Positions 17,090 to 35,516 of a DNA stretch of 57,670 bases are shown here, piece after piece. The position numbers and the translations under genes are program-made. Source of the DNA: an uncultured archaeon (GTDB taxonomy: Archaea > Nanohalarchaeota > Nanosalinia > Nanosalinales > Nanohalalkaliarchaeaceae); assembly GCA_964575915.1 (NCBI GenBank), contig CAZNTD010000001.1, positions 1 to 57,670 on the forward strand, read 5' to 3'. The first letter of the stretch is position 1. Every line of letters starts with the position of its first letter. Under the pieces are notes generated by a model. It was not told the origin of the DNA. It did not search any database and saw nothing but the letters and a program-made list of their open reading frames with translations.

Positions 17090-17164
17090 GGACCCGTGGC
17101 TTAGCCAGGTTAAAGCACCACGCTGATAACGTGGAGATCCGCGGTTCAAATCCGCGCGGGTCCA
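17090..17164 (+). tRNA. tRNA-Ile (anticodon GAU)
   Basis: Acceptor GGACCCG/CGGGTCC, anticodon arm CCACG-CTGATAA-CGTGG, T arm CGCGG-TTCAAAT-CCGCG, discriminator A. TATA gtataaaatg lies about 30 nt upstream. Confidence 0.9.
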
Positions 17165-17222
17165 CTTCCGCCGCATATTCTCTCGGCGGATTCGTCTCCT
17201 CGCATCTCTGCCGAGAAGCTCG

Positions 17223-17246
17223 GGTTCAAATCCGCGCGGGTCCACT
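17223..17246 (+). repeat. direct duplicate of the tRNA-Ile 3' end (T loop, 3' T stem, 3' acceptor strand)
   Basis: GGTTCAAATCCGCGCGGGTCCACT occurs at 17143-17166 (inside the tRNA) and again at 17223-17246; identical 24 nt. Confidence 0.9.
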
Positions 17247-23898: not shown

Positions 23899-23918
23899 TG
23901 GGTCCGAGCGGATTTGAA
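23899..23918 (-). repeat. direct duplicate of the tRNA-Val 3' end
   Basis: Plus-strand TGGGTCCGAGCGGATTTGAA occurs at 23969-23988 (tRNA 3' end) and again at 23899-23918; identical 20 nt. Confidence 0.9.
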
Positions 23919-23968
23919 GTCGAAGACCGCTCCGGTCTTCTTCGATCAAATCCGCCGAGATGATGGGA

Positions 23969-24043
23969 TGGGTCCGAGCGGATTTGAACCGCCGACCTTC
24001 GCCACGTCAAGGCGACGTCCTGACCAGGCTAGACCACGGACCC
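23969..24043 (-). tRNA. tRNA-Val (anticodon GAC)
   Basis: Reverse complement folds as acceptor GGGTCCG/CGGACCC, anticodon arm TCGCC-TTGACGT-GGCGA, T arm GGCGG-TTCAAAT-CCGCT, discriminator A. Confidence 0.9.
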
Positions 24044-26994: not shown

Positions 26995-27038
26995 CAGGAG
27001 CCCCATTTAAAACGTTTTCCTCCTGTATCTATTGCCGA

Positions 27039-27920
27039 GTGGCTACAGTGAGGGACGACCTGGATATCGATACCGGCATCGTGGCGGAGTGGTTCGAGAC
27101 CGACGACCTGTGGGCGTTCCTCGGCGACCTCTCCGGCGCGCTGGACGGCGACGCACGTGCGGTCCTGCCGCACAGCGTGGAGCCCGAGACGGGTCGGTCC
27201 TACGCCGAGACCCGGCTGGACCGGTACGCCGACCACCCCGACTTCGACCGGGCGGTCGCCGCCGCGCTCGCCAGCCAGGACCTGAACGGCACCGCCGACG
27301 TGGCCGCCGCCCTCTTCCCGCACGACCGGCCGTTCAGCAACGTCCCGTTCCGCCCATCGTTCGCCCCGTCCGAGGGCGACGCGCTACAGCGGTACGTCTC
27401 GCTGGACGGGACGCGGGAGGAGCTCGTGCCCCCGGTCGAGGACGCGCTGCCGTACCGGGAGCGGTTCGACCGGGCGATGCGCCACGCCGTCACCTACGCC
27501 CACAACTTCGAGACGCTGCGCCACGAGTCCCGCGTCACCGTCCCCGGCATCGAGATCCACATGGCCGAGGGCAACGAGGGGCCGTGGCCCTACATCGTCG
27601 CGGAACACGTCGACGGCCCGGCGCTCTCCCAGATCTGGAGCAAGGACTGCGACGAGATCATCGACATGCAGTACGGCAAGGCGAACGTCGACGGCGAGAA
27701 GCTGGCGAAGGACCGGAAGATATCCTACCGGCGGCTGCTCGGTGGCACAGACTACCGCGTGGACGACGACCAGACGCTCTACCTCGTCCACCCCGGCCAC
27801 TACATCCCGGAGAAGACCGAGGACCAGTTCGCCGATGACCCGCACGTCCCGGACCCGGACGAGGTCGACGCGATGGCCGACCCGGACTACTGGGACGGCC
27901 CGGCACGGATAACCTTTTAA
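27039..27920 (+). CDS. acidic hypothetical protein
   Basis: 293-aa ORF with a GTG start about 28 nt downstream of TATA catttaaaacg. No motif recognised. Confidence 0.55.
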   Translation: MATVRDDLDIDTGIVAEWFETDDLWAFLGDLSGALDGDARAVLPHSVEPETGRSYAETRLDRYADHPDFDRAVAAALASQDLNGTADVAAALFPHDRPFSNVPFRPSFAPSEGDALQRYVSLDGTREELVPPVEDALPYRERFDRAMRHAVTYAHNFETLRHESRVTVPGIEIHMAEGNEGPWPYIVAEHVDGPALSQIWSKDCDEIIDMQYGKANVDGEKLAKDRKISYRRLLGGTDYRVDDDQTLYLVHPGHYIPEKTEDQFADDPHVPDPDEVDAMADPDYWDGPARITF

Positions 27921-27946
27921 ACAGTTCTCGCGCAACCGCTACGCGT

Positions 27947-28132
27947 GCCCCGGTGGCTTAGCCCGGTATAGCGGCCGACTTGTACGCCTGCCGTGGCAGG
28001 CGGCAGCACGGACCACCTCCGGTGGTCTCCGCTTCGCGGAACCTGGACCCTGCCCGATACGCTGACGCCGTTCACGGCGGATGACCTGACCAGGAGATCG
28101 GCAGGCCGTGGGTTCAAATCCCACCCGGGGCT
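27947..28132 (+). tRNA. tRNA-Thr (anticodon UGU) with 112-nt intron at 37/38
   Basis: Acceptor GCCCCGG/CCGGGGC, anticodon stem GCCGA/TCGGC, loop CT-TGT-A[intron]A, T arm GTGGG-TTCAAAT-CCCAC, discriminator U. TATA cttttaaac lies about 30 nt upstream. Confidence 0.8.
27985..28096 (+). other. tRNA-Thr intron
   Basis: Bulge-helix-bulge-compatible junctions: exon CTTG pairs with intron CAGG (4 bp). The 5' bulge is TA|C and the 3' bulge is AG|A. Confidence 0.7.
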
Positions 28133-28170
28133 TTCCCCTTCATTCTCGCGGGATTTGTCCGTCTCTCCGG

Positions 28171-28569
28171 TCAGTCGATACGCGTGACCGTGGAGATGGA
28201 GACGTAGACCCGGCCGTCCCGGTCACGGCCCGGCGCGATGTCCGCGGTGGTCGAGAACGGCTCCCGCCGGTCATGGTCGAAGGTGAGGCCGCCCGCCACG
28301 CCGTACCGGGCATCCCCCGCCGCATCAAGGTCGGCCATCCAGGCGCCGTCAAGACGGACGTCCCGGAGCGGCCGGTCGTCAGTCCGTGCCGCGGCCGCCT
28401 CGATACCGGCGGTCACGGCGCCGTACACCCGGTCGGACCGGATGTGCGCCCGGTCCCGGCGCAGCGCGTCCCGCACCGCCTCGTACACCGCGTCATCGCT
28501 GATGGTGATGCCGTCCACCACGACGTACCGCAGGTCCCTGTCGTCGGTCACGGGCAGGTCACGACACAT
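28171..28569 (-). CDS. hypothetical protein
   Basis: 132-aa acidic ORF. Its TATA (ccttatttatac on the minus strand) lies about 22 nt upstream. Confidence 0.5.
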   Translation of the reverse strand: MCRDLPVTDDRDLRYVVVDGITISDDAVYEAVRDALRRDRAHIRSDRVYGAVTAGIEAAAARTDDRPLRDVRLDGAWMADLDAAGDARYGVAGGLTFDHDRREPFSTTADIAPGRDRDGRVYVSISTVTRID

Positions 28570-28597
28570 TTAAGCATCCGGCCGGTATAAATAAGGT

Positions 28598-29038
28598 ATG
28601 GACACGGACAGGCGTTCGGTGCGGTACGTCAACCGGGAGCGGGTGGACCGGACGTACGGCGTCGAACTGTCACCGGACGGGGCGACGTTCCTCGCGGGCG
28701 GCGACCTGCTCGTCGCCGCATCCGGCGGGACCGGCGGGGAGTACGTGGTCGCGGCGGACCACCCCCTGGACGTGGCGGGGCTGGACCGGGACCGGGTCTC
28801 CCGGTTCATCGACGACCTGGAGGCTGCCGTCCCGGGCCGCCACGCGTGGTACGACGGCAAGCCGAAGGGGACGCGTGTCGTCGACCTGCCGCACCGTGAC
28901 CCGCCGGAGAAGACGCCCATCAACACCGTCGACCCGGCGTACGGGGCGGCGCTGGACGCGGTCAGCCGTGAACTCGGCCGGCGGACGGACCACCCGGTCA
29001 TGGCACTCGGGGCGCTGCCGTTCCAGTGGGACGACTAG
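28598..29038 (+). CDS. hypothetical protein
   Basis: 146-aa ORF. TATA catttaagc lies about 27 nt upstream. Confidence 0.5.
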   Translation: MDTDRRSVRYVNRERVDRTYGVELSPDGATFLAGGDLLVAASGGTGGEYVVAADHPLDVAGLDRDRVSRFIDDLEAAVPGRHAWYDGKPKGTRVVDLPHRDPPEKTPINTVDPAYGAALDAVSRELGRRTDHPVMALGALPFQWDD

Positions 29039-30567
29039 CGGAACGCCGCGAGGAGATCCTGCAGGAACCGCTGCAGCGCGGCGAACACCGTGTTCACGAG
29101 GTTCCGGGCATCGCCACCGACCGTCCCGTTCGTGGGGAGGATGGGTGAGCCGCCCGGGTCCAGGTCCGGCCGCTCCACCGGTTCGATGGGGACCTGGTCC
29201 ACCTGGCCCTCGAGGTCACCGAGTTCGGGGATGACCGGCTCCATCTCGTTCACCTCGTCGAGGCATGCGCGGAGCTGCGCCTCGGATGGCAGGTCGCACG
29301 GCCGGAACGTCGCGTCCATGAGGGACAGGATCTGCTCGTTGGACGTGGCGGTGTCCTCGATGGCCTCGGTCCGATCCTCGTTCAACTGCCGGAGGTCGCG
29401 GTAGACGGGCTGGAGCGACTCCGCACCTTCCTCCATGACGTGGTTGCGGATGACGAGTTCGCCGTACGCGTAGCCGAACGTCCGGTCGATGGAATCCTGC
29501 TCGAAGAGCGTCCACTCCAGCATCGCGTTTGAGCCGGACGCGTAGTAGTCCCACAGGTCCTCGGGCGTCTTCCGGGGCGGGTAGGTGTGCGTCCGGTTGA
29601 TGCGCACCGTCTCGCCGAATATCTCCGCCTGCGGGACGGACCGGTTCGCGTTCACCAGCCACTCGACGTACTTGGCGGTGCCCTCGTCGAACCACGCCCG
29701 TTGCGCCCGGGTCCACCGCAGCGCCTGCTCGTTGAACCCGTGCATGACCTCGTGGAGGAGGACGCCGGGGCCGTGATCGCTCTCAAGCGTCGGCCGTTTC
29801 ATGAAGATGATGCCGCCGGTCCGGTACTGGCCGGCGCTCCACCGGTCCACCTCCGCCTCGTATGTCTCCGCGTCGTAGACGATGACCGGATACCGGTTGA
29901 CCGTGGGCAGGAAGCCGGTCACCGCGGCGGGCACCCAGTAGAGGTCGTCGGCGGTCGAGATGTCGCCCGGGCCGAACAGCACCATGTTGTCGTACCGTTC
30001 GCCCTGGTCGCTGACCGTGAGATGGAGGTTGACAGGTCCTTCCCCGGACAGGTTGATGCCGTTCGGCTCCATCGCGGCGTCGAACCCGAGGCTGTGCGAC
30101 TGGCTGTGAAGCGCGCGCTCCGTCGATACCTGGACCTGCGTGACCTCGTCCGGCCGGTCGGGATACCGGTCGGAGAAGCCGGACAGGCGCAGCCGCACCA
30201 GGTCGAGTTCCCGGTACTCCTCCGTCACCGCACTCTCGGTGGTCGCGTGTACGGTCACGACCTCGCGGGTCCGGGCTGTTCCCTGGTTGGTATCGAACCG
30301 GAGCACCCCGTCATCGAAGGTATAGTCCTCGATTGGCCCCAGTGAATCGCTGACGGACAGTACGCGGAACCTCTCGGGAAGCGGGAATCCCTGGTTGCTG
30401 ACTCGCCAGAAGTTTTTCGGCTCGTCCGCGTACAGTTCGAATGTGACGTTGAGGTCCGCGGTGTCGCCGTCGACCGTGATGTCGTACGACGTGACGGCGC
30501 CGACAGCGGGCATCAGGAGCAGCAGGACCGCGAGCGGCAGGACGCCGCGCACCAGGCGTGTATGCAT
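29035..30567 (-). CDS. secreted gluzincin-type zinc metallopeptidase-like protein
   Basis: Signal/anchor VRGVLPLAVLLLLMPAVGA. HEVMH followed by 18 residues and then E (HEXXH-X18-E). Confidence 0.7.
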   Translation of the reverse strand: MHTRLVRGVLPLAVLLLLMPAVGAVTSYDITVDGDTADLNVTFELYADEPKNFWRVSNQGFPLPERFRVLSVSDSLGPIEDYTFDDGVLRFDTNQGTARTREVVTVHATTESAVTEEYRELDLVRLRLSGFSDRYPDRPDEVTQVQVSTERALHSQSHSLGFDAAMEPNGINLSGEGPVNLHLTVSDQGERYDNMVLFGPGDISTADDLYWVPAAVTGFLPTVNRYPVIVYDAETYEAEVDRWSAGQYRTGGIIFMKRPTLESDHGPGVLLHEVMHGFNEQALRWTRAQRAWFDEGTAKYVEWLVNANRSVPQAEIFGETVRINRTHTYPPRKTPEDLWDYYASGSNAMLEWTLFEQDSIDRTFGYAYGELVIRNHVMEEGAESLQPVYRDLRQLNEDRTEAIEDTATSNEQILSLMDATFRPCDLPSEAQLRACLDEVNEMEPVIPELGDLEGQVDQVPIEPVERPDLDPGGSPILPTNGTVGGDARNLVNTVFAALQRFLQDLLAAFR

Positions 30568-30664
30568 GGTATATCACGTCCCGCTGGAGGTATAAGAAAC
30601 CCGCGGGGGCCAGGGAAACCGTCCCCTCCTTTATAAAGGTTTAGTGATTAGTGAGGGGTAGGAG

Positions 30665-30865
30665 GTGTACACTTTGGAAGGTACAGTTGCCTTCTTCCAT
30701 GATAGGAAGAAGTACGGCTTCATCGAGTCCGACGATGTGGAAGACGACGTCTTTTTCCACCTCGACGACATCGATGGAGAATCCATCGCTGAAGGCGACC
30801 AGGTCTCGTTCGAGGCCGAGGAAGCTGAGCGTGGTCCGCGGGCGACGAACGTCGAGATCCTGTAG
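30665..30865 (+). CDS. csp: cold-shock domain protein
   Basis: GTVAFFHDRKKYGFI (RNP1-like) and DVFFH (RNP2-like). GTG start preceded by ggagg. Confidence 0.85.
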   Translation: MYTLEGTVAFFHDRKKYGFIESDDVEDDVFFHLDDIDGESIAEGDQVSFEAEEAERGPRATNVEIL

Positions 30866-30874
30866 AAGGGATCC

Positions 30875-30893
30875 GATCCCGTCTTACGGGATC
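30875..30893 (+). terminator. hairpin downstream of csp followed by pyrimidine-rich tract
   Basis: GATCCCG-tctta-CGGGATC (7-bp stem), then a tctttctccttcttcc tract. Confidence 0.4.
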
Positions 30894-30992
30894 ACCCCGG
30901 TTTGACAGTCTTTCTCCTTCTTCCCATTATCTTTCTCACCTGGGATTCCTATACCGTACCGATATCGATACAACGCAGGGAGGAAGATGCTG

Positions 30993-31931
30993 TCAGTCGC
31001 CGGGTTTCTCCGCGTCCAGGTCGAGCTCCTCGATGAGCTCCCGGGCACGGGCACGGACCGTGACGGTCGTCACCCCGAGCGTCTCCCCGACGTCGGTGAT
31101 GGTGCGGTCCTCACCGGCCATCCGCGCCGCCACGAACAGCGCCGCCGCGGCGATGCCGGTGGGCGACTTGCCGGAGAGGAGTTCCTGGTCGCGGGCCCGG
31201 CCGATGATGTCCAGGGCGTGCTCGCGCACCGCATCGCTCAATTCGAGCCGGTCCGCGAACCGCTTCAGGTGGTCCTCCGGTGCGGGTGGCAGGACACGGA
31301 CATCCGTGTTCCGGCCGATGTACCGGTAGGCGCGGCCGACCGACTTCTTGGACGTCCCGACAGCGGCCGCGACCTCGTCCAGCGTCCGCGGATCGGTCTC
31401 GTCCTTCGCCGCGATGTAGATGACACCGCCCAGCATCTGCGGGAACGGGTACGCCCGCATCAGCCCCTTGTCCCGGACGACCTCGAGCAGTTCGACCGCC
31501 CGGTCGTGGACGTCACGGGACAGTTCAAGGGACGAGATGGCCTGCTGCATCCGGGTCATCTCGTACGCCGGCCGGTCCTGGATGTCGGGCAGCCACTTCT
31601 CGATGCCGCGGTACCGGTCGGTCATCGCCACGAGCAGTATCCCGGCGGCGACCATGACCATGTTGAACCCGACCACCGCCACCGCCATCAGCGCGATCTC
31701 GGTGCGTGGCGCCAGCAGCTCGTCGTACTCCCGGCCGATACGGGAGAGGTAGACCAGGAGGGCGGGGAGGAGCGCGACCGCGAGGTGGACCGGGACGTGC
31801 ACCCCGAGCAGCGTCTCGACCACGACGCTCCCGGTCACCCACTCGAACAGGAGGACCGTGGAGAACACGATGAACCCGTACTCGATGCACGCGAACCCGA
31901 CCTTGCCCCACACCGGTCGTCCTCCCGTCAT
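30993..31931 (-). CDS. TFB/TFIIB-core (two cyclin-fold repeats) protein with N-terminal transmembrane region instead of zinc ribbon
   Basis: The C-terminal 200 aa carry two TFIIB repeats (LELSRDVHDRAVELLE..., LELSDAVREHALDIIG...GKSPTGIAAAALFVAARM...). The N-terminal ~110 aa have three hydrophobic helices and no CxxC pairs. Confidence 0.75.
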   Translation of the reverse strand: MTGGRPVWGKVGFACIEYGFIVFSTVLLFEWVTGSVVVETLLGVHVPVHLAVALLPALLVYLSRIGREYDELLAPRTEIALMAVAVVGFNMVMVAAGILLVAMTDRYRGIEKWLPDIQDRPAYEMTRMQQAISSLELSRDVHDRAVELLEVVRDKGLMRAYPFPQMLGGVIYIAAKDETDPRTLDEVAAAVGTSKKSVGRAYRYIGRNTDVRVLPPAPEDHLKRFADRLELSDAVREHALDIIGRARDQELLSGKSPTGIAAAALFVAARMAGEDRTITDVGETLGVTTVTVRARARELIEELDLDAEKPGD

Positions 31932-31979
31932 ACCATGATGTTGGCGTCCGAGGCTTAAAAGACCGGTCGGATGTCCGCG

Positions 31980-32153
31980 TCACCCCGCGAGACGGACGTA
32001 CAGGATCCAGGTGAGGGACAACCCAGCGACGAGGCCGAACGCCGTGGGGAAGAACGCGAGCACGGGGACGTTCCGGGAGATGACGCTTGCAAGCAGGAAG
32101 ACCGCGACGACCACGAGGGCGGCTCCGATACGCATATGCCGCAGGGCGGACAT
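31980..32153 (-). CDS. possible 57-aa two-TM membrane protein (not in ORF track)
   Basis: Hand translation gives MSALRHMRIGAALVVVAVFLLASVISRNVPVLAFFPTAFGLVAGLSLTWILYVRLAG. GC3-rich codons. It lies between tRNA-Trp and the TFB-like gene. Confidence 0.45.
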   Translation of the reverse strand: MSALRHMRIGAALVVVAVFLLASVISRNVPVLAFFPTAFGLVAGLSLTWILYVRLAG

Positions 32154-32161
32154 GAGCGGAG

Positions 32162-32350
32162 TGGGGACACCCGGATTTGAACCGGGATCAACCGCTCTCT
32201 CCGTGGGGTCGGCAAGATCATCGCCCGTCAGGGCTCAGCCCTCCAGACCACTGCGCAGCAGCGGAGCGTTCCGGACGGAACGCGACCGTATTGCCGCCTG
32301 CTACGGCAGGCGCTGGAGGCGGTTAGGATGCCTGATTACCCCATGTCCCC
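32162..32350 (-). tRNA. tRNA-Trp (anticodon CCA) with 116-nt intron at 37/38
   Basis: Acceptor GGGGACA/TGTCCCC, anticodon stem ACCGC/GCGGT, loop CT-CCA-G[intron]A, T arm CCCGG-TTCAAAT-CCGGG, discriminator A. TATA gttttaaatcc lies about 28 nt upstream. Confidence 0.85.
32197..32312 (-). other. tRNA-Trp intron with box C/D-like guide element
   Basis: Exon CTCC pairs with intron GGAG, with bulges AG|C and AG|A. The intron contains CTGGAGG-G-CTGA, complementary to the anticodon loop. See findings. Confidence 0.7.
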
Positions 32351-32393
32351 TCGCACGGTGGTTGCGGGTGAGGATTTAAAACCGCACCGGTGG

Positions 32394-33224
32394 TCACGGT
32401 GCGGGGCGGATGTGGAGTGTGATACCGTCCGGGTCCCGGACCGTGAATCCCTCGTCAGCCGGTTCGACCGGCATCCCCGCGTCGATACATCGCTCCTGGA
32501 GCGTCGTGACGGCGTCCCGGGACGGGACGTGGAGCGCGAACCGGTCCAGGCCGCGGCCCGACACGGGGGCGGTCCGGCCGTTCCACGTGTTCATCCCGAT
32601 ATGGTGGTGGTAGTCGGCGGCGGCCACGAACAGCGCCGTTCCGAGTTCCTGCCGGACCGTGAACCCAAGCGTGTCCACGTAGAACGCCCGGGACGCGGCC
32701 AGGTCGGTCACCTCGAGGTGGACGTGGCCGACGGTCGTCCCGTCCGGCACCCGGTCGTGGCCGTGCGCGGCGGGGCGCAGGCCGTCCAGGTCGAGGCGTT
32801 CCGTCGGCATCGCCACCATCCCGCCGGTCTCCGTCCAGTCCTCGCGGTCCCGGTCGCGGTACACCTCGATGCCGTTCCCCTCCGGGTCGGACAGATAGAG
32901 GGCCTCGCTCACCCCGTGGTCGGATGCGCCGTGCAGCGCACCGGCCGCCTCCACACGGTCCAGCACGTCCGCGAGCGCCCCGCGGTCCGGCACCCGCACC
33001 GCGGTGTGGAACAGGCCGGCCGCCTCCCGCGGCCGGTCCGGGATGTCGCGGTCCTCGCGGAGGACGATGAGCGGCCTGTCCGGGCCGAGCACCATCCGGC
33101 CGTCCTCCCGGTCCTGGACGGGCAGCCCGACGGTGTCACGGTAGAACCCGCCGACCCCGTCGAGGTCGGTCACGGTGAGCGTGACCGTGCCGGGGACCGT
33201 CCCGCCCGGGATTGTCCATGCCAC
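32394..33224 (-). CDS. two-domain VOC (glyoxalase/extradiol dioxygenase-like) family protein
   Basis: Repeated VOC modules (TLTVTDLDGVGGFYRDTVG..., VGHVHLEVTDLAASRAFYVDTLG...). The start is set at the GTG at 33224, 8 nt after the upstream stop. The track start at 33293 would overlap the upstream gene by 62 nt. Confidence 0.7.
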   Translation of the reverse strand: MAWTIPGGTVPGTVTLTVTDLDGVGGFYRDTVGLPVQDREDGRMVLGPDRPLIVLREDRDIPDRPREAAGLFHTAVRVPDRGALADVLDRVEAAGALHGASDHGVSEALYLSDPEGNGIEVYRDRDREDWTETGGMVAMPTERLDLDGLRPAAHGHDRVPDGTTVGHVHLEVTDLAASRAFYVDTLGFTVRQELGTALFVAAADYHHHIGMNTWNGRTAPVSGRGLDRFALHVPSRDAVTTLQERCIDAGMPVEPADEGFTVRDPDGITLHIRPAP

Positions 33225-33231
33225 GGCGAAA

Positions 33232-33555
33232 TCATCCCTCCTCCCGGTGCTGCCGGGAGCGCCACCGGGGCGGGTGGAGGAACCGGCGGACACGGCGGCG
33301 GGACAGGAGGTAGGAGGTGCCGCTGGTCAGCAGGAAGAGGATGCCGGCGGCGAGGAACACCATGCCGGTCCAGACCGCGAGCGGGGACTCGAACAGTTCG
33401 AGGAGGGCGACCCCGAAGAGGAACGCGGCGAACCCGGTGCGGATGTGCGCGAGGACGGTGCGTTCCCGGGCGAGCTGCGTCCGTTCCTCGGCGAGCGCCT
33501 GGATCTTCCGCTGGTGCTCCGGCAGGTCGTCGTCCGACCGGTCCGGTTCGGGCAT
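33232..33555 (-). CDS. DUF202 (YidH-like) membrane protein
   Basis: LARERTVLAHIRTGFAAFLFGVAL motif. Trimmed to MPEPDRSDDD. Confidence 0.65.
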   Translation of the reverse strand: MPEPDRSDDDLPEHQRKIQALAEERTQLARERTVLAHIRTGFAAFLFGVALLELFESPLAVWTGMVFLAAGILFLLTSGTSYLLSRRRVRRFLHPPRWRSRQHREEG

Positions 33556-33624
33556 GTGTCCCCGTTGGCACCGCTGGTTCTTGAATGCACGGGGTTGAAA
33601 AGCCGGGAGGGACAACGGGGACCC

Positions 33625-34044
33625 ATGGATCGACACGCACACGCGGAGTGGACCGGCGACCTGGAAACCGGTGCGGGAACGATGGACCTGGAGTCCGGCA
33701 CGTTCACCGGGGCGTACACGTTCGGCTCCCGGTTCGGTGACGAGAAGGGGACGAACCCGGAGGAGCTCATCGGGGCGGCCCATGCGGGCTGCTTCTCGAT
33801 GGCGCTGTCGATGCTGCTCGGCGAGGCGGGGTACGATCCGGAGAGTGTCAGCACGGACGCCACCGTCTCGCTGGACATGGAGCCGGACGTGCCGCGCATC
33901 GCATCCATCGAACTGGTCTGCCGTGCAGCGGTGCCGGGCATCGACCCGGACGAGTTCGCGGCCATCGCGGAGGATGCGAAGGAGAACTGTCCGGTGTCCG
34001 TCGCGCTCGACGTCCCGGTCACGCTCGACGCCGAACTCGTCTAG
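33625..34044 (+). CDS. osmC: OsmC family peroxiredoxin
   Basis: GTNPEELIGAAHAGCFSMAL and ENCPVS, the two conserved Cys motifs. Confidence 0.85.
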   Translation: MDRHAHAEWTGDLETGAGTMDLESGTFTGAYTFGSRFGDEKGTNPEELIGAAHAGCFSMALSMLLGEAGYDPESVSTDATVSLDMEPDVPRIASIELVCRAAVPGIDPDEFAAIAEDAKENCPVSVALDVPVTLDAELV

Positions 34045-34775
34045 CCCTGGCAGGGACCGCTGCCGTCCATCACCCGGCGGATCTCCGCCGGTCCGAGTTC
34101 CCGGTCGTACACCCGGACATCGGCCAGGGCAGCGGCGAAATCCGGGTTCTCGTTCCCCTCGCCGAGCACCAGTCCGTCGTTCCAGACCGGGACGCGGATG
34201 CCGCCGACGTCGCCGTCGTCCCCGCTGTAGTCGAGGACACCGTCGATGTAGACCCGCCAGTCACGCGTGTTGTTGACATGCTGGATGGCGACGTGGTACC
34301 AGCGGGACGCGTTCCACCTGGTGCGCACCGTCCCCGGGTTGGTGTTCCGTTCCGCGTGCTTCCATAGCGACCACCACAGCCGGCCGTCGGTCCCCGGTCC
34401 CCGGATCTTCAGCCGGGGGTAGCCGTCCCCGGTCGGCAGCTCGATGATGGAGCCGGTCACCGGGCCGGGCCGGAGCCAGAACGTGATGGTGAACGCGTCG
34501 TCCGTCAGTGGGAGCGGCTCGGCCGCCTCCGCGCTCCCGGTGCGGAGCGACAATGCCCCGCCGTCCGGGCCGTCGGTGAGGGAGGCGCCGGAGAGATGGA
34601 GGTCGTTGCCCATCGGGGATGCGTCGGGGACGGTGCCGTTCGCAGCGGCATCCATCCGGTAGTGGGCGACAAGATCGCACGTCCCATCCGCCCCCTCGAG
34701 GAACGTGCCGCCGAGCCCGACGCCCAGCCCGATGAGGAGTGCGATGACCGCCGCGGCGTGGACACGCCTGTCCAT
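34041..34775 (-). CDS. secreted LamG/concanavalin-like domain protein
   Basis: Signal anchor AAAVIALLIGLGVGLGG. FTITFWLRP...WYHVAIQH...VYIDGVL...VRVYDRELGPAEI is typical of LamG. Trimmed to MDRRVHAA. Confidence 0.7.
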   Translation of the reverse strand: MDRRVHAAAVIALLIGLGVGLGGTFLEGADGTCDLVAHYRMDAAANGTVPDASPMGNDLHLSGASLTDGPDGGALSLRTGSAEAAEPLPLTDDAFTITFWLRPGPVTGSIIELPTGDGYPRLKIRGPGTDGRLWWSLWKHAERNTNPGTVRTRWNASRWYHVAIQHVNNTRDWRVYIDGVLDYSGDDGDVGGIRVPVWNDGLVLGEGNENPDFAAALADVRVYDRELGPAEIRRVMDGSGPCQG

Positions 34776-34854
34776 GCCCCGGGATTGGCGCGGAGCGTTT
34801 AAGTGGGTGCTGCCCGGGCGGGAGATTGATAAGCGAGGCGGGTGATGGTTTCCC

Positions 34855-35493
34855 GTGATGCGGACGTTCGCGGACCGGGAGGACGCCGGGGAACGGCTCG
34901 CCGACCTGCTCCGGGAGGACGGGGTGGAGGCGGATATCGTCCTCGCCATCCCGCGCGGCGGTTTGCCCGCCGGGCGTGCCGTGGCGGACCGGCTCGGTGT
35001 CCCGCTGGACGTGGTGGTCGCGCGGAAGATGGGTGCGCCCGGCAACCCGGAACTCGCCATCGGGGCGGTGGCCAGCGACGGGTCGGCCTGGCTGAACGAC
35101 GACCTCATCGACCGGCTCGGTGTCGGCGAGCCGTACGTGGACGAGGTGCGGGAGCGGGAGGCGGAGAACGCCCGGGCGAAGCTGGAGCGGTACCGGGAGG
35201 GCCGGGAGGAGCCGGACCTGGACGGGAAGCGGGTGGTCGTGGTGGATGACGGGGTGGCGACCGGTGCGACGATGACGGCGTGCCTCCGGCAGGTCCGGAA
35301 CGCGGGGGCGGACCGGGTCGTCGTGGCCGTCCCGGTGGGCCCGCCGGACACGCTGGAGATGCTGCGGGGTGAGGCGGATGCCGTGTACGCGGTGGAGCGG
35401 CCCCCGGGATTCACGGCGGTCGGCGCGTACTACGACCGGTTCGACCAGGTGCAGGACGCGGAGGCCGTGACCTACCTCGGGAAAGGTTCTTGA
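34855..35493 (+). CDS. phosphoribosyltransferase family protein
   Basis: PRPP-binding motif VVVVDDGVATGATM. Confidence 0.8.
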   Translation: MMRTFADREDAGERLADLLREDGVEADIVLAIPRGGLPAGRAVADRLGVPLDVVVARKMGAPGNPELAIGAVASDGSAWLNDDLIDRLGVGEPYVDEVREREAENARAKLERYREGREEPDLDGKRVVVVDDGVATGATMTACLRQVRNAGADRVVVAVPVGPPDTLEMLRGEADAVYAVERPPGFTAVGAYYDRFDQVQDAEAVTYLGKGS

Positions 35494-35516
35494 ACCTCGC
35501 GCTCGCACCGGGGTGT

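Follow-up and report, generated by a model that had tools for sequence, protein, structure and literature searches.

In archaeal pre-tRNA-Trp the intron carries a box C/D guide for Cm34 and Um39, which reviews call a unique example (PMC4090602, PMC11408192, PMC7994747) and which the same three reviews summarise for Haloferax volcanii and Pyrococcus (Clouet d'Orval 2001, Singh 2004). In haloarchaea, H. salinarum among them, introns are confined to tRNA-Trp and tRNA-Met (PMC12558985). In DPANN archaea, an alpha4-type EndA with an L3 loop has been linked to more disrupted tRNA genes (PMC5829648), and intron transposition has been described in tRNA genes of Thermoproteales (Fujishima 2010, as summarised in PMC4090602). 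Our literature search found no published account of tRNA introns in Nanohaloarchaeota. Here we describe a tRNA-Thr(UGU) gene with a 112-nt intron, located at 27947-28132 (+) of a stretch of 57,670 nucleotides (the window; contig CAZNTD010000001.1 of assembly GCA_964575915.1). An earlier note on this DNA had started from the premise that long introns in halophilic archaea belong to tRNA-Trp and a few others, and not to tRNA-Thr. That premise does not apply, since the organism is a nanohaloarchaeon (DPANN), represented by a metagenome-assembled genome (MAG), and not a haloarchaeon, and introns are found in about a third of its tRNA genes (~14 of ~43; ARAGORN with introns allowed, Rfam supporting most loci).

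The best explanation of the locus is a joint one, which we consider fairly probable as a whole: a working tRNA-Thr(UGU) gene whose intron combines an old box C/D-like guide half for U39 with a later cassette from a repeat-like family, built around a 27-nt module with a candidate pseudoknot (PK). If the archaeal pre-tRNA-Trp intron is taken as the model, L7Ae, Nop5 and fibrillarin would assemble on a kink-turn (K-turn) of the Thr intron. The guide would base-pair with unspliced pre-tRNA-Thr around the 3' splice junction, and U39 would be ribose methylated before or around splicing. The 5' 58 nt of the intron (27985-28042) would be a later insertion made of the PK module and two stable hairpins, belonging to a family dispersed in tRNA introns, beside tRNA genes and after protein genes of Nanohaloarchaeota. 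Its PK part would have been homogenised with, or copied from, the neighbouring tRNA-Trp intron.

Compared, via the reviews, with the pre-tRNA-Trp guide, the Thr unit has the same setting: a guide-like element in a bulge-helix-bulge (BHB) intron at 37/38 that would pair with the anticodon-arm region of its own tRNA across the splice junction. The predicted targets are likewise positions 34 and/or 39, the proteins needed (L7Ae, Nop5 and fibrillarin) are encoded in this genome, and a precursor would again adopt either the guide fold or the splice fold, not both. The differences lie in the host, which here is tRNA-Thr(UGU) and also tRNA-Met, tRNA-Lys(UUU) and probably tRNA-Ser(CGA), and in the unit itself, which has one box pair and one guide (a half-mer) in place of C, D', C' and D. 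Furthermore, the C-like box is GGAUGA, an unrelated 58-nt cassette precedes the guide, and the lineage is DPANN rather than Euryarchaeota. New host tRNAs, a minimal one-K-turn form and an undescribed pseudoknot cassette thus appear to be what this locus adds to the logic of the tRNA-Trp intron. The genome also resembles the DPANN genomes with alpha4-type EndA in being small and of symbiont type, with a single 176-aa alpha-type EndA and many intron-bearing tRNA genes; that study (PMC5829648) counted introns and did not describe guide units or shared modules.

The segment 27947-28132 (+) is an intact and probably working tRNA-Thr(UGU) gene, the sole copy found in the assembly. The Rfam tRNA model (RF00005) matches it end to end over the full model (1-71) with 45.2 bits (gathering score 29), with a 114-nt insertion inside the anticodon loop, and the coordinates of the Thr and Trp genes were verified letter by letter. 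Exon 1 (27947-27984, positions 1-37, anticodon TGT at 27981-27983) and exon 2 (28097-28132, positions 38-73, U39 being 28098) rest on Rfam and this coordinate check, and the intron (27985-28096, canonical 37/38 site) on both and on ARAGORN. The BHB can be read directly at the junction: the anticodon stem, the bulge AG|A, a 4-bp helix CUUG/CAGG with one G-U pair, and the bulge UA|C. Its 5' half (27979-27985) contains the helix strand CTTG (nt 32-35; 27979-27982), the bulge TA|C and the 5' splice site 27984|27985; its 3' half (28091-28097) contains the strand CAGG (28091-28094), the bulge AG|A and the 3' splice site 28096|28097. Gene, intron and junctions are thus as the earlier note had placed them. 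The Trp, Thr(GGU) and Lys introns share the geometry of the 5' half, as do the orthologues, and the genome's EndA should cut the Thr intron at this BHB. Upstream there is a promoter-like TATA element, ACCTTTTAAACAG (27912-27924 (+), ~25-35 nt before the tRNA 5' end), and the tRNA-Trp gene has an identical TTTTAAA at equal distance. In default mode ARAGORN missed both the Thr gene and the neighbouring tRNA-Trp gene. With introns allowed, it found a 112-nt intron in the Thr gene, placed it 3 nt too far 5' and labelled the tRNA Ser(UGA). This label was rejected: the tRNA body has no long variable arm and closely matches that of the Thr(CGU) gene of this genome, being almost identical to it, the shifted sites fall inside the 4-bp helix, and the orthologues and Rfam give UGU.

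In what follows, G000 is the assembly of this genome, C denotes a contig, and other G and L labels are relatives or their loci. The orthologue in G007 (contig C8) is 79% identical in gene and intron across all 186 nt, and the Thr-Trp neighbourhood is kept there, with the Trp gene 2 kb away on the same contig (4 kb in the window). Introns of 14-220 nt at 37/38 are common in the tRNA-Thr(UGU) genes of relatives, as a check proposed in the earlier note revealed, and their position is the same in orthologues. That note had also named a pseudogene call or an intact intron-less copy as grounds for giving up the model. Neither was found; in particular, there is no second Thr(UGU) copy without intron, nor a spliced-junction-like sequence, elsewhere in the 69.5%-complete assembly. 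The locus could be a defunct pseudogene or an assembly chimera made by the repeated module, as PK copies do break assemblies, several contigs ending inside one, and ARAGORN makes no call in default mode. However, the cloverleaf is intact and the promoter-like TATA is present, the locus stands well inside a contig of 57.7 kb, near its middle, and gene, intron architecture and Thr-Trp neighbourhood recur in an independent MAG (G007, contig C8), which leaves a pseudogene or chimera the least credible of the explanations weighed here.

The 3' half of the intron contains a guide-like unit. From 28049 it consists of CCUGCCCGAUACG, CUGA, the hairpin CGCCG UUCA CGGCG and GAUGA. In the guide-like element CCTGCCCGATACG (28049-28061 (+)), UAGCC can pair with A38-G42 (5 bp), and with one C bulged the duplex extends over A38-G46 (9 bp); U39 then faces the fifth nucleotide before CTGA. 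The element is followed by this box D/D'-like CTGA (28062-28065 (+)), whose position is conserved in the orthologous Thr introns (some with ATGA or CCGA instead) and in every Trp intron of the order. The inter-box hairpin CGCCG-TTCA-CGGCG (28066-28079 (+)), which could be a K-turn C-stem or a K-loop, keeps its pairing despite altered sequence: in G007 it is CACGC...GCGTG, and the same holds in other introns. The box C/C'-like GGATGA with its GAUGA core (28079-28084 (+)) is kept as (N)GATGA in all guide-bearing Thr and Trp introns. A second CTGA (28086-28089 (+)) is probably no box; it reads CCGG in G007, and it was rejected as a D box for this lack of conservation and for want of a convincing target for its upstream 12-mer. 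GGATGA and both CTGA elements are where the earlier note had located them. The segment 28049-28084 looks like a single-K-turn box C/D-like guide that would direct methylation of the tRNA's own U39.

The case for such a guide comes from relatives, because the 5-bp pairing of this intron itself is not above chance (p ~0.4). The order of guide, CUGA, hairpin and GAUGA is found in Thr introns from two families. In 9 of the 10 Thr(UGU) introns compared, also from two families, U39 stands opposite the fifth nucleotide upstream of CTGA, ATGA or CCGA (the N+5 register); in the remaining one, the 49-nt intron of G006, one extra base shifts the register by one. When exons and junctions were scanned in free register, the best Watson-Crick run through N+5 fell on position 39 in all eight introns (8/8). 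The runs of the orthologues measure 5-8 bp, that of G007 reaching 8 bp (p = 0.004 against shuffled guides). As the orthologues are kin, such agreeing counts overstate independence, and covariation events are the stronger evidence. Guide nucleotides 2-3 covary with the last two intron nucleotides (AC/GU, UU/AA, AU/AU), and the pairing partner would therefore be the unspliced precursor, as in the tRNA-Trp case. The earlier note had found no complementarity between the intron and its own exons and had looked for a target elsewhere; both points have to be revised, as a guide-like complement lies in exon 2, in U39 register in relatives. No trans target of the guide was found among the rRNA and tRNA genes of an assembly that holds only a 16S fragment. 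An unanchored best-target search was too noisy in this GC-rich RNA, giving the PK stem as the top ungapped match for Thr, and was replaced by the N+5-anchored test.

Several observations speak against an active guide in a spliced intron. First, the guide of this genome makes 5 contiguous bp through N+5, where a guide of the pre-tRNA-Trp type should have ~8-12 bp, and shuffled guides reach 5 bp 42% of the time. Furthermore, in Thr and Trp introns of the order there is one box pair, with no C/D boxes at 12-nt spacing on either side, and the C-like box reads GGAUGA rather than RUGAUGA. Half-mer C/D RNAs are poor methylation guides in vitro. In an unanchored search the PK stem of the same intron is about as good a partner for the Thr guide. 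In Thr a local hairpin, the PK stem, takes the place of the outer BHB helix, which in the short G026 orthologue is made by the two intron ends; cleavage by an alpha-type EndA is therefore an assumption, because the ends of this intron do not make that helix. Finally, a completeness of 69.5% may leave room for an intron-less Thr(UGU) copy. Because of its single box pair the unit falls outside the full definition of a box C/D RNA; it does agree with an internal D'/C' unit in having CTGA, hairpin and GGATGA conserved in orthologues.

These points bear on the possibility that in this genome the guide has become a relic: the intron would be spliced, but the CUGA/GGAUGA unit would no longer direct methylation of tRNA-Thr and would be inert or have drifted to another target. 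The 5 contiguous bp through N+5, not above shuffled guides, are what a relic would look like. Guide nucleotides 2-3 (AC) mismatch the last intron nucleotides (AG), unlike in relatives, and a perfect 13-nt complement of the guide lies in a LamG-domain ORF (open reading frame). On the other hand, both boxes and the intervening hairpin are intact and conserved with G007. The duplex reaches 9 bp if one of three consecutive C is bulged, and RNAfold forms it, at least in its CCUGCC/GGCAGG part, in the minimum-energy precursor. The 13-nt complement could be chance, because ~0.08 such 13-mer matches are expected in this genome. We regard a relic as unlikely, yet worth keeping in view. Under the preferred reading too, the U39-directing activity may be weak or lost in this genome, since erosion has left no more than 5 contiguous bp of the pairing (9 with the bulged C). 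The complement itself, CGTATCGGGCAGG (G000:C41:7551-7563 (-)), is located near the 3' end of the 505-aa LamG-domain ORF.

The same unit, CUGA-hairpin-GAUGA, is present in the introns of tRNA-Trp, tRNA-Met and tRNA-Lys(UUU), where runs of 7-8 bp put N+5 on position 34 (p = 0.005-0.025). The tRNA-Trp(CCA) gene (32162-32350 (-)) was defined by ARAGORN with introns (its call being c32161-32350) and by coordinates, and contains a 116-nt intron (32312-32197). On the minus strand this comprises the PK module (32312-32286), the guide GGTCTGGAGGG (32249-32239), CTGA (32238-32235), a hairpin (32234-32223) and GATGA (32222-32218). A 7-bp run of this guide puts C34 at N+5 (p ~0.025 against shuffled guides), and all Trp introns of the order retain CUGGAG(G)N-(C/A)UGA-hairpin-(C/U)GAUGA. 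In the Lys(UUU) intron (129 nt; G000:C15:18220-18422) U34 is at N+5 with 8 bp, and in the Met(CAU) intron (131 nt; G000:C5:5283-5488 (-)) C34 is at N+5 with 7 bp. In the Ser(CGA) intron (111 nt; G000:C51:6348-6545 (-)) it is U39 that stands at N+5, with a weak 5-bp run. The Met guide was found too in two other nanohaloarchaeal MAGs (L052 and L099). The tRNA-Trp gene was not recognised by Rfam either, nor by ARAGORN in default mode; in 32313-32350 (-) two nucleotides, not one, separate its D stem from its anticodon stem (UA; UG in relatives), a conserved feature. Thr(CGU) introns (G000:C53:1767-1924 (-); L010, L013 and L022) contain two GAUGA-type boxes and a conserved guide-like GUGAACACCC, for which no target was found in the partial assembly with its 16S fragment only.

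The 5' half of the Thr intron is of another kind. It opens with the PK module (27985-28011 (+)), which has a stem CGCCTGC (27985-27991)/GCAGGCG (27996-28002), a loop CGTG (27992-27995) and a tail GCAG-CAC-GG (28003-28011), the loop GTG being complementary to CAC of the tail and thus able to form a pseudoknot. Across the family the 7-bp stem exists in two compensated versions, CAACUGC/GCAGUUG and CGCCUGC/GCAGGCG, the loop having the form CGYR and the tail the form GCAR-YRC. A collection of 26 distinct copies (this genome and relatives) had been selected for the stem and not for loop-tail pairing. In it 94.9% of cells show complementarity between nucleotides 2-4 of the loop and 5-7 of the tail, and two of the three pairs show changes on both sides. 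When the partner was slid by 1-3 columns, only 13-59% were paired. The four loop variants CGUA, CGCG, CGCA and CGUG each have a matching tail (GUA/UAC, GCG/CGC, GCA/UGC and GUG/CAC), and two of the three differences between the Thr and Trp modules form such a compensating loop-tail pair. This supports a compact pseudoknot as the predicted fold of the 27-mer or, alternatively, two alternative hairpins. No Rfam 15 family corresponds to PK; a search of 27000-35500 up to E = 1 gave tRNA only, as did 14 other loci of the genome. In the Thr intron the PK hairpin occupies the place of the outer helix of the splice motif. It is followed by hairpin H2 (28012-28026 (+); ACCACC-TCC-GGTGGT, with a UNCG-like loop), which has a compensatory A-U to G-C change relative to G007 (ACCGCC/GGCGGT) and also follows PK in other copies. 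Hairpin H3 comes next (28027-28042 (+); CTCCGC-TTC-GCGGAAC), is identical in G007, and recurs after PK and H2 in an element on G000:C38 and in the Thr(GGU) intron.

The match between the Thr and Trp introns is confined to the PK module. Formal alignment gave 24 of 27 identical positions, as the earlier note had counted, with a local score of 39 against 15.6 +/- 2.4 for shuffled sequences, none of 2000 shuffles reaching it. Beyond the module the alignment of the two introns is of shuffle quality (1192 of 2000 shuffles score at least as high), and the mid-intron GGTGGTCT/AGTGGTCT element that had been proposed as shared is at chance level. Convergence under a shared structural constraint, with neither descent nor copying, might explain two modules that share their position with respect to the splice site and consist in part of a stem. 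However, the unpaired tail (GCAR) and the loop are common to both as well, the match is ~10 standard deviations above shuffles, other introns meet the same splice geometry with unrelated sequences, and near-identical 27-mers are found outside introns and in many genomes. We consider convergence highly improbable.

The Thr intron is a mosaic of an older guide-like 3' half and a later 5' cassette. In an alignment of five Thr genes the cassette stands out as a clean block of ~63 nt, present in this genome and in G007, its closest relative, and absent from G006, G003 and G026; G006 and G007 belong to one genus. Within the cassette the two parts have different affinities. The PK of the Thr intron matches that of the genome's own Trp intron at 24/27 positions (stem 14/14) and that of the G007 Thr intron at 19/27 (stem 10/14), whereas the next 31 nt (H2-H3) match G007 Thr at 29/31 and own Trp at 9/31. 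Copying or conversion of the module alone would leave such a pattern. The Thr(UGU), Trp and Thr(GGU) introns of this genome all open with CGCCUGCC right at the splice site, and the G007 Thr intron opens with CACG followed by a CAACUGC-type stem. PK is found at the junction in Trp introns of three families, but the Thr(UGU) introns that have it there are those of this genome and G007 alone. Most simply, the cassette would have arrived in the Thr intron in an ancestor shared with G007, and homogenisation of its PK part with the nearby Trp intron would have come later; we infer the direction and the mechanism of PK spread. The earlier suggestion that a module had been copied between two tRNA genes therefore holds in part: the mosaic identities favour exchange between introns, but a private link between Thr and Trp has to be given up, as the motif is dispersed, with at least eight copies here, some of them outside introns.

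Seven PK copies plus one variant, in Thr(GGU), were found in this genome, and the 27-nt module is common to its Thr(UGU), Trp, Thr(GGU) and Lys(UUU) introns. With a covariance model, matches were obtained in 25 of 61 genomes searched, with 0-9 copies per genome and copy numbers that vary widely inside families and genera. An 18-base pattern run across 185,579 species genomes matched nanohaloarchaeal MAGs, and records with the pattern include Nanohaloarchaea, Nanohalobium and Candidatus Asbonarchaeaceae archaeon. The bacterial matches (~25) were rejected as real PK, the chance expectation being ~17, and three exact matches in viral contigs were also put down to chance, as their loops and tails are unlike the motif. 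In canonical introns PK starts 0-5 nt past the 5' splice site. Other copies are found in tRNA flanks, in intergenic DNA, in a D-loop and, within Met and some Thr introns, between the two boxes. Two cassettes follow a stop codon at a distance of 1-2 nt, that of an EF-1beta-like gene (G000:C60:4223-4330) and that of a small ORF (G000:C27:12477-12507).

This distribution bears on what PK is. It could be a structure that benefits the host and no selfish repeat: a protein-binding or folding module, the outer splice helix, or a stabiliser of the excised intron. Its place 0-5 nt past the 5' splice site in canonical introns, a core nearly invariant across genomes of 44 to 67% GC, and covariation at the RNA level, which argues for structural selection, would all suit such a role. 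Yet PK is absent from 36 of the 61 genomes and ranges from 0 to 9 copies within families and genera, orthologous Thr and Trp introns do without it, and there are copies behind the EF-1beta gene and a small ORF, between tRNA 3' ends that are duplicated, and in intergenic DNA. A need for PK as outer BHB helix is weakened, because the short PK-less orthologues also lack a strong outer helix, which thus seems dispensable. We hold a host-beneficial role to be somewhat unlikely. Among repeats, the cassette resembles miniature inverted-repeat transposable elements (MITEs) and repetitive extragenic palindromic (REP) elements in being multicopy, patchy and intergenic or gene-adjacent, in breaking assemblies, and in having some copies with direct repeats. 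It differs from them in the lack of terminal inverted repeats and of an associated transposase, in the covariation that indicates selection on RNA structure, and in its strong preference for tRNA introns and flanks. The transposed introns of Thermoproteales are similar in that near-identical intron sequence occurs across tRNA specificities of one genome, patchily among close relatives, and at canonical and (in relatives) non-canonical positions. Here, however, a module is shared and not a whole intron, it is also found outside introns, it has a conserved predicted pseudoknot, and the lineage is another one.

Several PK copies have unusual surroundings. The copy on G000:C60 has the same internal layout as a tRNA intron of another MAG (L083). 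In L021 (G016:C5, ~1244-1541) the D-loop of a tRNA-Thr(CGU) gene is interrupted after GGTA by a PK cassette, a non-canonical intron position, and the gene has a long 37/38 intron as well. In L121 (G005:C5, ~1440-1600) PK is flanked by a 45-nt direct repeat carrying GUGAUA...CUGA box-like motifs, which may be a duplicated small guide RNA. Besides a tRNA-Thr(GGU) gene without intron (G000:C17:8319-8393), this genome has a second one (G000:C3:4054-4296) with an intron of ~170 nt. That intron consists of modules alone (PK, extra hairpins, H2, H3 and the GAAA-hairpin) and contains no C/D-like boxes. The tRNA-Ile (window 17090-17246 (+)) and tRNA-Val (23899-24043 (-)) genes have their own sequence from the T-loop to the 3' end duplicated ~50 nt downstream, and the spacer of the Ile duplication (...CCTCGCATCTCTGCCGAGAAGCTCGG) is nearly the same as a spacer on contig C38. 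There, in G000:C38:1-230, a tRNA 3' end is present three times, and copies 2 and 3 enclose a full PK cassette that has the 15-nt repeat CCTGCCGGGCTCGTT on its flanks. Several contigs break off within a PK copy, at the end of G000:C27, at the start of C58, in G007:C144 and in L081. The PK repeat therefore breaks the short-read assemblies of these MAGs.

The host assembly has 986 kb in 83 contigs, with a GC content of 67.5% and a completeness of 69.5%, and every relative found has a genome of 0.6-1.3 Mb. The long tRNA introns of this genome are those of Thr(UGU) (112 nt), Trp (116 nt), Thr(GGU) (~170 nt) and Lys(UUU) (129 nt), besides those of Met (131 nt), Ser(CGA) (111 nt), Leu(UAG) (126 nt) and Thr(CGU) (~85 nt). 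The remaining ones are Gln (67 nt), Arg(UCU) (63 nt) and four that are shorter. EndA is encoded in this genome by a single 176-aa ORF, on G000:C52, which matches both endonuclease domains (PF02778 and PF01974). Fibrillarin and Nop5 genes are located on G000:C30 and were found in 58 and 57 of the 61 genomes searched, respectively, and the L7Ae gene is on G000:C4. A second module, the hairpin GARAAAnnnn-loop-nnnnUUUCGA, recurs at the 3' end of several introns (G000:C3, C5, C53 and C58) and also in the spacer after tRNA-Val (window 23920-23945 (-)).

A wider proposal is more tentative, and we put it forward as possible rather than probable. Nanohaloarchaeota may have undescribed structured and mobile RNA cassettes, each a 27-nt pseudoknot with stable hairpins, that settle in BHB introns and in tRNA loops and flanks and pass from one RNA gene to another. 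They may also use tRNA introns as a general platform for minimal single-K-turn guides for the very precursor that carries them, directed at position 34 in Trp, Met and Lys and at position 39 in Thr and Ser, the Trp guide being one member of a wider system. Tools for tRNA annotation miss these genes in default mode, which makes the tRNA sets of such MAGs look incomplete. With the PK cassette there is a concrete case, outside Thermoproteales, of how archaeal tRNA introns may grow and swap parts. If the guide reading is true, the tRNA-Trp intron would no longer be the unique self-guide, as up to five tRNAs of one tiny genome would have one, in a one-K-turn form. If these guides are active, a half-size C/D particle would work in vivo, and introns could persist as carriers of the guide of their host tRNA. 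Highly reduced symbionts would then still invest in ribose methylation of the anticodon arm.

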